This document shows, piece after piece, positions 29,143 to 31,922 of a DNA stretch of 64,000 bases. This stretch comes from Pseudomonadota bacterium (GTDB lineage Bacteria; Pseudomonadota; Alphaproteobacteria; Paracaedibacterales; CAITNM01): NCBI GenBank assembly GCA_018062345.1, contig JAGOSL010000007.1, forward strand, positions 1,598 to 65,597, written 5' to 3'. How positions within the stretch are numbered: the stretch's first letter is position 1; every line of letters starts with the position of its first letter. Position numbers and translations under genes: made by a program. The notes beneath the pieces are model-generated. The model had not been told where the DNA came from. It ran no database searches and saw only the letters and a list, made by a program, of their open reading frames with translations.

Positions 29143-30954
29143 ATGGCAAGGGTCGACGACAACCTAGTTCGCTACTACCAAGATGAGCTTGATTATTTAC
29201 GCTCCAGCGGTCAGGAATTTGCTAAACAGTACCCCAAGATTGCGCGACGGCTCGAATTATCTGATGGGGAATCGCCCGACCCACATGTAGAGCGCTTGCT
29301 TGAATCCTTTGCCTTTTTGACAGCACGCCTTAGCAGAGCAATTGATGATCGCTTTCCACAAACTGCCCAAGCATTGCTGAGTGTCTTATACCCCCATTTG
29401 ATTAATCCTGTCCCTGCAATGGCTATTGCAAAACTTCAAGTGGACAGCAGTCAAATTGCACCTGATAAAGGGTACCATTTGCAAAAAGGTACACAACTTT
29501 TAGCACATTCAATAGAGAATGTTCAGTGTCGTTTTCGAACTGTTTATGATCTGCAACTTTGGCCGATCAGCATTCAGTCTGTTGATATAGTCTCAAGAGA
29601 CTCTTTTACATTTGAAAAAACGCCTGAAAATCATTGGTTTTTAAAAATAACAATATCTTCTAAAACCGCACCACTTGGCGCTATGGCACTAGAAGATTTA
29701 TTGGTTCACATAAGCAGCAACTGGGTGAAAGCAAATCTTTTGCATGAAGCCTTGTTCAGTGAGTATGCAGGCAATGTTCATGTCACAACCGATGAACAAA
29801 CCATAGCAGTTGGAGGGTGTGATTTAGAAGAAGTTGGCTATAAACGTGATGAATTAGCAATCCCAGTACCCGATTACAGCCTGCACCACTATGCTCTTTT
29901 TCAAGAATATTTTCATTTCAGTGAAAAATTCTTATTTTTCCGCATTACAGCACTACAGGCTGTAATTAGAAAGCTTGCCCCTCAAAAACAAATGCACATT
30001 TTAATTCCAATTAAAAACCCGGCCGTTTTCAAACAGCAAGGGGTAGACGCAACATCTTTTTCGCTCAATTGCTTGCCTGTTATTAATTTGTTCGATAGAC
30101 CCGCTGACCCTATTCGAATTCATCATCGACATCTGCGATATCGCCTTATACCTGATATACGCCGAGAACGAACAACTGAAGTCTACAGTATTCAAGACGT
30201 TGAAGGTATTGAAGAAAAAAGCCAAAACATTATTCAATATAATCCTTACTACGGGATCGAAGCGCATGATAGCACGAAAGGATCATTTTGGTTGGCGCAA
30301 CGTGTCCCTGCAGAACTTAGAGGAATGCCAGGAACTGATATTTATTTGTCATTTATTAATCGTGATTTTCAACCAATCAAAGCAAAAGATATTATTGTAA
30401 CGGCTAAAATTACCTGCACTAATAGGTATTTGGCTGATCAATTATCTGCCAACTCCCTATTGCAACCAGAAGATAAAGCCCCAGTCCTTAAAATTACACT
30501 TCTGAATAAACCCGCTTCGCAAAACTATACCATGCACGATGGTGAGAGTTTATGGATGTTGATATCTCAGCTTTCTAGTAATTACCTTGGGGTTTTAGAT
30601 ACATCGCAAGGACTGAATGCTTTAAAGGAATTTTTGTATCTTTTTGCAAGTCGTTATCCAGATCAGCCAACAACCACAATTGAAGACTTAAAAAATATGA
30701 AGATCTCCCAAGTTACTAGGCGTTTTGGCCAAGAAGCATGGAGAGGTTTCGTGCAAGGCTACAAAATACAACTTGAAATGGAAAAGACAAATCATCAAGG
30801 CGGAAACAACCTAATTTTGGGAACAATATTAAAGATGTATTTTGGCTCACTGGTTCACTGGAATAGTTTTGTTGAATGCAGTTTAAACGATGGAAAAAAT
30901 AATGGAGAATGGATGAAATGGCAGCCCCAGCCCGGCGCACAAGTGCAGCTGTAA
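29143..30954 (+). CDS. tssF: Type VI secretion baseplate protein TssF (ImpG/VasA)
   Basis: 603 aa. The N-terminus LVRYYQDELDYLRSSGQEFAKQYPKIARRLELSDGESPDPHVERLLESFAFLTARL ... LYPHLINPVPAM is the textbook TssF signature. Confidence 0.92.
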   Translation: MARVDDNLVRYYQDELDYLRSSGQEFAKQYPKIARRLELSDGESPDPHVERLLESFAFLTARLSRAIDDRFPQTAQALLSVLYPHLINPVPAMAIAKLQVDSSQIAPDKGYHLQKGTQLLAHSIENVQCRFRTVYDLQLWPISIQSVDIVSRDSFTFEKTPENHWFLKITISSKTAPLGAMALEDLLVHISSNWVKANLLHEALFSEYAGNVHVTTDEQTIAVGGCDLEEVGYKRDELAIPVPDYSLHHYALFQEYFHFSEKFLFFRITALQAVIRKLAPQKQMHILIPIKNPAVFKQQGVDATSFSLNCLPVINLFDRPADPIRIHHRHLRYRLIPDIRRERTTEVYSIQDVEGIEEKSQNIIQYNPYYGIEAHDSTKGSFWLAQRVPAELRGMPGTDIYLSFINRDFQPIKAKDIIVTAKITCTNRYLADQLSANSLLQPEDKAPVLKITLLNKPASQNYTMHDGESLWMLISQLSSNYLGVLDTSQGLNALKEFLYLFASRYPDQPTTTIEDLKNMKISQVTRRFGQEAWRGFVQGYKIQLEMEKTNHQGGNNLILGTILKMYFGSLVHWNSFVECSLNDGKNNGEWMKWQPQPGAQVQL

Positions 30955-31922
30955 AGCAAACGCTTCCTGAACAGATTCTTGAAACACCCGAGGCATTTGA
31001 CCTGGATCAGATGATATACATCATCGAATCGCTTAGAACCAATGTTCACCCTTTAGGAGAGGCAACAAACCCCAAGAAAGAAGCTGTGCGGATACGCAGC
31101 CAACTAACGATGCATCAAGAAGGTACGGAAATCAATCGCTTAAAAGTTGGAAAAACGCCCTCTCACCTGCCAGAAATTTATATTAATACCTTAAGTCTTA
31201 GCGGTATTAATGGTCCACTGCCTACCCCGTATACCGAAATGCTGCTAGAGCAGGTTAAGAAAAAGGACTATTCAGGTATTCATTTTTTAGATATATTTCA
31301 TCACCGCTTAGCTGCAATGTGGCATCGTTTGCGCAAGCGCACCTACCCTCACCTTTTCAAAAGTCCCCCAACTAATACGCCCCTTGGAAGACTCCAAGGA
31401 AGTTTAAGCGGATTTGAACAACAAGCAGACATTACTCACACGTTATTTTTTGACCATTTTTGGAGACGTTCCCGTTCACTTTCAAGCTTACTGCAAATGA
31501 TTACAAAAATTTTCAAGGTGAAGGCAACTATAAATCCTTTCGAAGGAGCCTGGAGAACCGTTGATAAATCTGAAGGCAGTCGATTAGGACAAGCTGGACA
31601 ATTTCAAATTTTGGGAAAAAATGCCACGTTGGGCCTTAGGTGCTGGGATCAGGCTGCAGGGTTTACCATAAACATAACCTCACTTGATTGGAATACCATC
31701 CACCAGTTCTTACCATTTAAAAACAATACACTTGGAGGCGCAAATTTTCACTCACTAAAGCATTTGCTAATTAGTTATATGGGGACGTTGCCCCGGGTGT
31801 TTTTAAAGCTTTCGCTCAACGTTGATGAAAATCAAGGAGCGAAATTAAACAAACAACACGGCCTTGGCTGGAACACTTGGTTGAGTGGTGCAAAAGCAGA
31901 TGATGTTAGGGTGAGGGTTTGA
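30909..31922 (+). CDS. tssG: Type VI secretion baseplate protein TssG (ImpH/VasB)
   Basis: 337 aa with AFDLDQMIYIIESL, LSLSGINGPLPTPYTEMLLEQ and FLDIFHHRLAAMWHR, matching TssG consensus blocks. It overlaps the tssF 3' end; an alternative ATG is at 30918. Confidence 0.9.
   Translation: MDEMAAPARRTSAAVKQTLPEQILETPEAFDLDQMIYIIESLRTNVHPLGEATNPKKEAVRIRSQLTMHQEGTEINRLKVGKTPSHLPEIYINTLSLSGINGPLPTPYTEMLLEQVKKKDYSGIHFLDIFHHRLAAMWHRLRKRTYPHLFKSPPTNTPLGRLQGSLSGFEQQADITHTLFFDHFWRRSRSLSSLLQMITKIFKVKATINPFEGAWRTVDKSEGSRLGQAGQFQILGKNATLGLRCWDQAAGFTINITSLDWNTIHQFLPFKNNTLGGANFHSLKHLLISYMGTLPRVFLKLSLNVDENQGAKLNKQHGLGWNTWLSGAKADDVRVRV

Follow-up and report, generated by a model that had tools for sequence, protein, structure and literature searches.

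A tssF-tssG pair in a 'Ca. Finniella' genome very probably belongs to a single type VI secretion system split into at least five dispersed modules

A dispersed layout of type VI secretion system (T6SS) genes has already been described in endosymbionts of the Holosporales, with systems in Ca. Bodocaedibacter vickermanii, Paracaedibacteraceae and Caedimonadaceae and with transcription demonstrated in Ca. Bodocaedibacter (Midha et al. 2021, PMC8163844). These published systems share with the genome studied here an isolated tssG-tssF pair, a divergent Hcp, the lack of a listed tssH and a small endosymbiont genome (PMC8163844). A 2025 review (PMC11909080) reports conservation of the T6SS in nearly all Holosporineae and mentions an apparent absence of the tube protein.

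We analyzed a 64-kb stretch of DNA (hereafter the window) that carries such a pair, together with the 1.46-Mb, 99.8% complete, 31-contig draft genome to which it belongs. The closest named loci, with 74-88% identity in TssF, bear the labels Ca. Finniella inopinata or Odyssella sp., and on this basis the genome is assigned to 'Ca. Finniella', a protist endosymbiont of the Holosporales. We conclude with high confidence that a single T6SS-i, the proteobacterial kind of T6SS, is split here into at least five dispersed modules. These are tssF-tssG and vgrG-ywqK/MORN in the window, tssBC-hcp-tssE on contig C16, tssK-tssL-tssM-tssA on contig C20 and PAAR on contig C15. Since the genome is a 31-contig draft, the distances between modules are lower bounds only.

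The two baseplate genes, called TssF and TssG in the initial annotation, are borne out by both Pfam and TIGR family scores in profile searches. tssF (29143-30954, + strand) encodes a baseplate wedge subunit of 603 aa that matches positions 2-608 of the 608 in PF05947 with 546.9 bits, and TIGR03359 over its full length with 529 bits (cut-off 260). tssG (30909-31922, + strand) encodes a second wedge subunit of 337 aa, scoring 194.8 bits on PF06996 and 189.6 bits on TIGR03347 (cut-off 143). tssG starts within the last 46 nt of tssF, and relatives have the same overlap. TssF is 74-88% identical to its counterparts in congeners and 33-44% identical to those in other families. Against the closest relative, dN/dS is 0.060 for tssF; the value for tssG is 0.085, and the housekeeping neighbors tsaD (0.083) and rsmA (0.076) match this range of 0.06-0.09. 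These analyses confirm the tssF-tssG pair as a genuine part of a T6SS, intact and strongly conserved.

The only other T6SS core gene in the window is vgrG (tssI; 17142-19286, + strand), which encodes the spike (TIGR03361, 496.8 bits) with Phage_GPD, Phage_base_V, Gp5_C and DUF2345 domains and is the sole vgrG found in a genome-wide search. It had been placed about 10 kb from the pair and lies 9.9 kb upstream of tssF. Three nucleotides after it begins a MORN_2-repeat (YwqK-type) gene (19290-19973, + strand; PF07661, 57.5 bits), and congeners keep a gene of this type beside vgrG. The two genes are the counterpart of the published ywqK-vgrG module (PMC8163844), except that the YwqK/MORN gene follows vgrG here and precedes it in the published Holosporales layout. 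Between vgrG and tssF lie lepB (20026-20877), a patatin-like gene (20945-22036, - strand), tsaD (22126-23151) and an MFS transporter gene (23124-24317); the separation of the two modules by the housekeeping genes lepB and tsaD had been noted from the sequence.

The initial annotation had called for a whole-genome search for the remaining core genes. Family searches and tblastn recovered the other components, each as a single copy and all on other contigs. Every core gene except ClpV and TssJ is present and intact, TssM being recognized by its N-terminal domain. The missing tssE, of which no copy had been seen near the pair, sits with tssBC and hcp on C16 (69613-70137; gp25-like, TIGR03357 78.8 bits against a cut-off of 53), directly after hcp. 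The tssE of Bodocaedibacter, by contrast, is listed under a separate locus tag. A clade TssE profile found no second copy in the genome studied here. On C20, the four genes are contiguous and on one strand: TssK (33053-34381; PF05936, 103 bits), TssL (DotU 100.6 bits; TIGR03349 93.9 bits, above cut-off), TssM (1426 aa) and TssA (26831-27985; PF06812, 97.4 bits; TIGR03363, 175.1 bits against a cut-off of 160.85). TssM was located as the neighbor of tssK through its N-terminal domain (IcmF-related_N, 159.7 bits). Beyond this domain no other Pfam domain was found at E <= 0.01, neither an IcmF-related nor a C-terminal one; PF06761 (TssM core) has no match anywhere in the genome, and comparison with the PDB and its solved TssM structures gave no sequence match. 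The PAAR gene lies at C15:61550-61840 (PF05488, 40.3 bits). The modules tssBC-hcp-tssE, tssK-L-M-A and vgrG with MORN_2/YwqK are all of the Holosporales type.

The sheath subunits, in contrast to the published Holosporales systems, are encoded by one gene (C16:70799-72727), whose 642-aa product carries VipA at residues 10-162, VipB at 220-517 and VipB_2 at 527-637. Family f1 retains the fusion and is the only family for which our own ORF calls confirm it. Open-frame lengths had suggested fusions in many families, a proposal abandoned on finding in-frame stops in G033, G019, G026, G025, G037 and G020b; putative fusions in G035, G022 and G038 come from matches cut by contig ends. Public data hold 428 long proteins with both TssB and TssC domains, including Holosporaceae MAGs, some P. 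aeruginosa records, Oceanospirillales and Acidobacteria, and given these we do not regard a single-chain TssBC as a novelty. A literature search for natural TssB-TssC fusions turned up engineered tags only.

The tube protein is divergent: at its expected locus on C16, Hcp reaches only E = 0.057 on PF05638. A clade Hcp profile nonetheless matches the solved Hcp 9qpe_A (E = 6e-4), and the position of hcp after tssC is kept in 18 relatives. With an AlphaFold model of the protein (pLDDT 75.7), 47 of the top 50 Foldseek matches are Hcp structures, the best being 4w64_C (E = 1.3e-9, TM 0.70/0.78). The predicted fold thus indicates that the Hcp (TssD) tube protein is present. A second Hcp, another difference from the published Holosporales systems, has a long, length-variable acidic repeat tail whose reading stops at a contig end; the two Hcp paralogues have no detectable likeness to each other.

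No ClpV/TssH was found in the genome. The sole candidate is a true ClpB, with 1346.7 bits on TIGR03346, the model for ClpB (cut-off 1232), and 817 bits on TIGR03345, the model for ClpV, below the cut-off of 885. All 14 genomes of the genus share this ClpV-less gene set, and true ClpV is limited to families f5, f6 and f8; ClpV has been lost in most families of the order and retained in three. Our literature search found no paper linking Holosporales to ClpV. For TssJ, PF12790 and TIGR03352 give no match at E <= 1 in this 99.8% complete genome, a further difference from the published Holosporales layout, and a very divergent TssJ may still be present.

Canonical T6SS-i such as EAEC Sci-1, P. aeruginosa H1-T6SS and that of V. 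cholerae share with this system the TssA, B, C, E, F, G, K and L families, the TssM N-terminal domain, VgrG, PAAR and the Hcp fold, and TssF is far above the T6SS-i equivalog cut-off. Unlike in the canonical systems, the genes here are unclustered, ClpV and TssJ are lacking, the periplasmic domains of TssM are unrecognizable and the sheath subunits are fused. Functional T6SSs without ClpV or TssJ exist. In Francisella, a functional T6SS-ii with an IglA/B sheath lacks ClpV and depends on ClpB for disassembly. That system resembles the present one in function, being also intracellular and ClpV-less with a housekeeping ClpB as the only unfoldase candidate, whereas its genes are clustered on a pathogenicity island and those here are dispersed. 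Membership of TssF in the Francisella type was rejected, as it scores 44.2 bits on the IglH/TssF model NF041246 (cut-off 75) against 529 on the T6SS-i model. In the system studied here, TssF and TssG would join TssE and TssK into the baseplate wedge, which would dock the VgrG/PAAR spike onto a putative TssL/TssM membrane complex; the Hcp tube and TssBC sheath would then polymerize from the wedge, and the sheath would contract. We infer that the apparatus assembles, fires and acts on the host, and that it may do so without ClpV and TssJ, perhaps with ClpB as sheath recycler.

The isolation of the pair extends across the order. Of 41 related genomes, 40 carry TssF, which is represented in 15 of the 16 genera, and tssG lies directly 3' of tssF in all 11 genomes compared. 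A synteny comparison with related symbionts had been suggested from the sequence; in 20-kb stretches from 11 genomes, namely that of the window plus those of 10 relatives in 7 families, only tssF and tssG are shared, the flanks are unrelated between families, and no other T6SS gene occurs within ~9 kb of the pair in the families sampled, which leaves tssFG an isolated pair with different neighbors in every one. In the near-closed relative G040 (2.47 Mb), tssFG and tssBC are ~575 kb apart on one contig. That a draft MAG simply broke one cluster into contigs is therefore scarcely credible, even for a genome in 31 contigs: about 30 kb of its own contig flanks tssFG on each side with vgrG as the only other T6SS gene, and the modules on C16, C20 and C15 each lie at least 25 kb from contig ends.

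The initial annotation had weighed an apparatus encoded in scattered pieces, as in reduced intracellular genomes, against one under dismantling, with tssFG and vgrG as leftovers that have not yet decayed. The scattered apparatus proved right, with intact core genes on other contigs of a reduced intracellular genome. A relic system would account for the undetectable ClpV and TssJ, the unrecognizable periplasmic part of TssM and a genome of only 1.46 Mb. It is very unlikely, however, and we reject it, since the remaining core genes are all intact and occur once each, TssF is kept in nearly all relatives, dN/dS equals that of housekeeping genes, the ClpV-less set is constant in 14 of 14 genomes of the genus, and working systems without ClpV or TssJ are known, such as that of Francisella with ClpB. 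The dispersal of the T6SS is ancestral to the order, is maintained under purifying selection and does not signal decay.

Upstream of the pair lie two paralogues with 38-52% identity, orfA (24413-26512, + strand; 699 aa, N-terminus VKFKNYITLVFLLNLIQPVESSA) and the genus-restricted orfB (26591-29077, + strand; 828 aa, N-terminus MSFFLCLMLIFCTINSCKSAS). Because neither has a significant match in the Pfam or NCBIfam profile libraries, their earlier description as OTU-like is unsupported. The Sel1-like gene noted downstream does carry Sel1 repeats (31945-34350, - strand; 801 aa, PF08238 64.6 bits), is convergent with tssG and has a paralogue on C20. The 65-nt spacer between orfB and tssF (29078-29142, + strand) contains neither a terminator-like hairpin nor a good sigma-70-like site in consensus scans, a result that would allow read-through from orfB. 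Where tssG and the Sel1 gene converge, the consensus scan picked out between them a G+C-rich hairpin, GGGGGACAAGCCCCC (31923-31937), a possible terminator of the tssFG transcript; as terminator-like sites in the region are no more numerous than in shuffles, this candidate is weak. Counts from the sigma-70 scan are likewise no higher than in shuffles, and the two scans inform only on the hairpin-free spacer.

It had been argued from their placement that the eukaryote-like proteins on either side share a regulon with the T6SS. On this reading, orfA and orfB, and possibly the Sel1 protein, would be co-expressed with tssFG as T6SS cargo or envelope accessories. The gap of 65 nt between orfB and tssF, which share a strand and have no terminator-like hairpin between them, points this way. 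So does the finding that every examined congener has an orfA/B-family gene ahead of tssF and in the same orientation, the family having 1 to 2 copies in these genomes. Yet an orfB-type gene precedes tssF only in genus g1, and the sister genus and all other families lack the family at this place while still keeping tssFG. In the congener G005, an opposite-strand PD-(D/E)XK transposase gene even stands between orfB and an intact tssF. orfB also evolves about three times faster than tssF (dN/dS = 0.19), and the Sel1 gene, besides being convergent, is absent from some congeners, with no tblastn match at the same position in G002, G011 and G013. Judged by eye, orfA, orfB and the Sel1 protein have Sec-type, signal-peptide-like N-termini, which are atypical for T6SS cargo. 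This comparison of gene order and sequence weakens the regulon claim, and we consider such coupling unlikely; orfB is a neighbor of tssF and no part of the T6SS core.

A more far-reaching reading, which we put forward only tentatively and consider somewhat improbable, is that the T6SS of the Finniella family is a mechanically stripped and rebuilt variant rather than merely a scattered canonical copy. Such a machine would combine a single-chain TssBC sheath, recycling by ClpB or by nothing, no TssJ and a TssM whose periplasmic part is unrecognizable, and of its two Hcp paralogues the tailed one could serve as cargo shot into the host. If so, the genus-restricted, exported orfA/B products, with the fixed place of their genes ahead of tssF, could be envelope or host-interaction accessories.

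The dispersed module of a single T6SS-i, our preferred reading, is correct but ordinary, because the layout has already been published for Holosporales. The window represents one further genome with that dispersed layout and therefore changes nothing in principle. What it adds to the published picture is an Hcp that the modelled fold indicates to be present, the retention of ClpV in three families, and the tssFG unit. tssF and tssG are the only T6SS genes that stay together across the order; this makes the pair a fixed unit of two genes, which must have expression signals of its own. Endosymbionts of the Holosporales are believed to interact with their hosts mainly through the T6SS, which is retained even in their smallest genomes.

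Both baseplate genes identified by the initial annotation proved to be full-length: tssF (29143-30954) matches PF05947 at 546.9 bits and TIGR03359 at 529 bits, and tssG (30909-31922) matches PF06996 at 194.8 bits and TIGR03347 at 189.6 bits, all four scores far exceeding the curated cut-offs. Upstream lies vgrG (17142-19286; TIGR03361, 496.8 bits), with a MORN_2/YwqK-type gene starting 3 nt after it. This module is followed by lepB, a patatin-like phospholipase gene on the other strand (20945-22036, minus strand), tsaD, an MFS transporter gene, and the paralogous orfA (24413-26512) and orfB (26591-29077); window annotation thus bears out the placement of lepB and tsaD between vgrG and tssF. 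The patatin-like gene is 82-93% identical across the genus, and such phospholipases are frequent host-directed effectors of intracellular bacteria. Sel1 repeats were confirmed in the convergent gene 3′ of tssG (31945-34350, minus strand). Neither orfA (699 aa) nor orfB (828 aa) has a significant match in Pfam or NCBIfam, so these profile libraries lend the 'OTU-like' label no support.

The genome (1.46 Mb, 31 contigs, 99.78% complete; the window lies within contig C23) was searched for the remaining T6SS genes by whole-genome family searches and neighbourhood scans, and the missing core modules were located on three other contigs, each component found being present in one copy. Contig C16 carries a fused tssB-tssC gene (70799-72727, minus strand), then a 189-aa ORF, then tssE; tssK, tssL, tssM and tssA are contiguous on a single strand of C20, and a PAAR gene is on C15. 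The absence of tssE from the vicinity of tssFG holds, as a clade-specific TssE profile found no second, hidden gp25-like gene in the genome. Directly 3′ of tssE, a 113-aa coiled-coil ORF (C16:69258-69599, minus strand) keeps its position throughout family f1 (30-82% identity) and has a weak, sub-threshold match to the v-SNARE N-terminal domain (PF05008, E = 5e-4); it may act as an accessory or effector specific to this lineage.

The isolation of tssFG had been read either as part of a scattered apparatus or as a sign of dismantling. TssF is found in 40 of 41 related genomes and 15 of 16 genera. Regions of 20 kb around tssF were compared in 11 genomes from seven families: tssF and tssG alone are common to all, the genes on either side bear no relation from one family to the next, and within ~9 kb there is no further T6SS gene. 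This synteny comparison rejects an assembly artefact as the cause of the scatter, as does the near-closed genome of a relative (G040), where ~575 kb separate tssFG from tssB-tssC on one 2.47-Mb contig. Comparison with the closest congener gave dN/dS values of 0.060 (tssF) and 0.085 (tssG), the same level as tsaD (0.083) and rsmA (0.076); with dS at ~1.2 they are rough, yet clearly low. With such values and such retention among relatives, dismantling is the wrong reading; the modules on several contigs and the isolated tssFG across families show the scattered alternative to be correct. Judged by these sequence comparisons, the arrangement is a selected, ancestral and dispersed one. Two relatives from other families (loci L044 on G020:C9 and L046 on G023:C17) also have a second, divergent T6SS, clustered as usual, with tssA, tssB, tssC, an extra TssC-like gene, tssF, tssG, tssK, tssL, vgrG and PAAR in ~15 kb; the TssF of this clustered system shares only 27-30% identity with that of the dispersed system.

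It had further been proposed that the flanking OrfA, OrfB and Sel1 proteins belong to the same regulon as tssFG. The gene order vgrG-MORN-lepB-patatin-tsaD-MFS-orfA/B-tssF-tssG-(Sel1)-rsmA-pepP is genus-wide, with one or two co-oriented orfA/B copies always 5′ of tssF. The 65-nt spacer between orfB and tssF contains no terminator-like hairpin, and a hairpin rich in G+C lies 3′ of tssG, so that transcriptional read-through from orfB into tssF is possible in this genome. However, neither the sister genus nor any other family carries an orfA/B member at this position, orfB has evolved ~3x faster than tssF, and tblastn found no match for Sel1 at this position in three congeners (G002, G011 and G013). 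The N-termini of all three proteins, judged by eye, resemble Sec-type signal peptides. In another congener (G005), a PD-(D/E)XK transposase gene lies on the opposite strand between orfB and an intact tssF (L037:7823-9010, minus strand); this insertion, with tssF and tssG both intact, suggests that the pair need not depend on read-through from orfB for its expression. A shared regulon is therefore unsupported. Copy number within the orfA/B family varies from one to two among congeners, and consistent with such turnover, a short fragment matching the OrfA C-terminus in congener G007 (L047:6232-6357), just 5′ of a full orfB-like gene, appears to be what is left of a lost paralogue.

The fused sheath protein (642 aa; locus L128) comprises VipA (residues 10-162), VipB (220-517) and VipB_2 (527-637) domains, with a short linker at about residues 163-219. 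ORF calls bear out a true fusion for both Finniella and the sister genus, conserved at 77-95% identity within family f1. Many other families of the order have separate tssB and tssC, some pairs sharing a frame and parted only by stop codons. Open-frame length misleads in such cases: fusions suggested by frames of 670-736 aa over separate matches were disproved by direct translation, which revealed in-frame stops. Public data hold 428 long proteins with both sheath domains, and no description of a natural fused sheath protein was found in the literature searched. The single-chain TssBC sheath protein is real but not unusual.

The only Pfam Hcp signal in the genome comes from the 189-aa ORF on C16 (E = 0.057). 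An ORF of 181-200 aa lies 3′ of tssC in 18 of 18 relatives examined, and a profile built from these ORFs matches a solved Hcp (E = 6e-4). The AlphaFold model of the 189-aa ORF (pLDDT 75.7, pTM 0.71) retrieved Hcp structures as 47 of the top 50 Foldseek matches, the other three being chimeras or tube-type proteins; the best was 4w64_C (E = 1.3e-9, TM 0.70/0.78). The kept position, profile match and predicted fold together indicate that the tube protein, Hcp1, is present. A second Hcp paralogue (C17:257346-259380, plus strand; locus L158), its ORF cut by the contig end, combines an Hcp domain at residues 33-186, matched by the clade profile at E = 3e-32, with a long, acidic tail that is rich in D, S, T and G and built from tandem repeats of 60 nt and 66 nt (L158:2529-3535). 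BLAST detects no likeness between the two paralogues, and the tssC-adjacent Hcp of other families is nearer to the second Hcp domain than to the local tssBC-adjacent Hcp1. Open frames of this second paralogue, which is conserved in both Finniella and the sister genus, span 329-1121 aa; it may represent an Hcp extended by a disordered cargo tail.

No ClpV was found in the genome: the sole candidate ATPase (C17:66463-68958, plus strand; L003) falls short of the ClpV model's cut-off (817 against 885 bits) and exceeds that of TIGR03346 (1346.7 bits), which identifies it by profile score as a genuine ClpB. The same single ClpB-level match, without ClpV, occurs in 14 of 14 genomes of the genus. Across the order, only three families (f5, f6 and f8) retain a true ClpV (>1000 bits), and the remaining families have lost it; the gene in G040 maps ~5 kb away from tssB-tssC-hcp-tssE, an arrangement that may be left over from an older cluster. 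Neither PF12790 nor TIGR03352 matched a TssJ in the genome, and TssM (1426 aa) matches the IcmF N-terminal domain only, with no sequence match to solved structures.

The nearest named loci (TssF 74-88% identical) come from metagenome-assembled genomes labelled Candidatus Finniella inopinata or Odyssella sp.; farther named relatives are Ca. Paracaedibacter symbiosus, Ca. Odyssella thessalonicensis and Ca. Caedibacter acanthamoebae. This clade's dispersed layout has been described before: T6SS core genes occur at four or more locations in Bodocaedibacteraceae, Paracaedibacteraceae and Caedimonadaceae, and in Ca. Bodocaedibacter their transcription has been shown (Midha et al. 2021, PMC8163844). 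The window matches this layout module for module. A recent review describes the T6SS as conserved in nearly all Holosporineae and calls it 'non-standard', TssD and TssJ apparently being absent (2025 review, PMC11909080).

Drawing on established knowledge of T6SS-i, we infer that TssF and TssG would form baseplate wedges with TssE and TssK around the VgrG/PAAR spike, docked on TssL/TssM via TssK. TssA would prime polymerisation of the Hcp tube and TssBC sheath. In Francisella, the sheath is recycled by ClpB; here, without ClpV, it would likewise be recycled by ClpB, or not at all. Contraction would expel Hcp and VgrG with their cargo.
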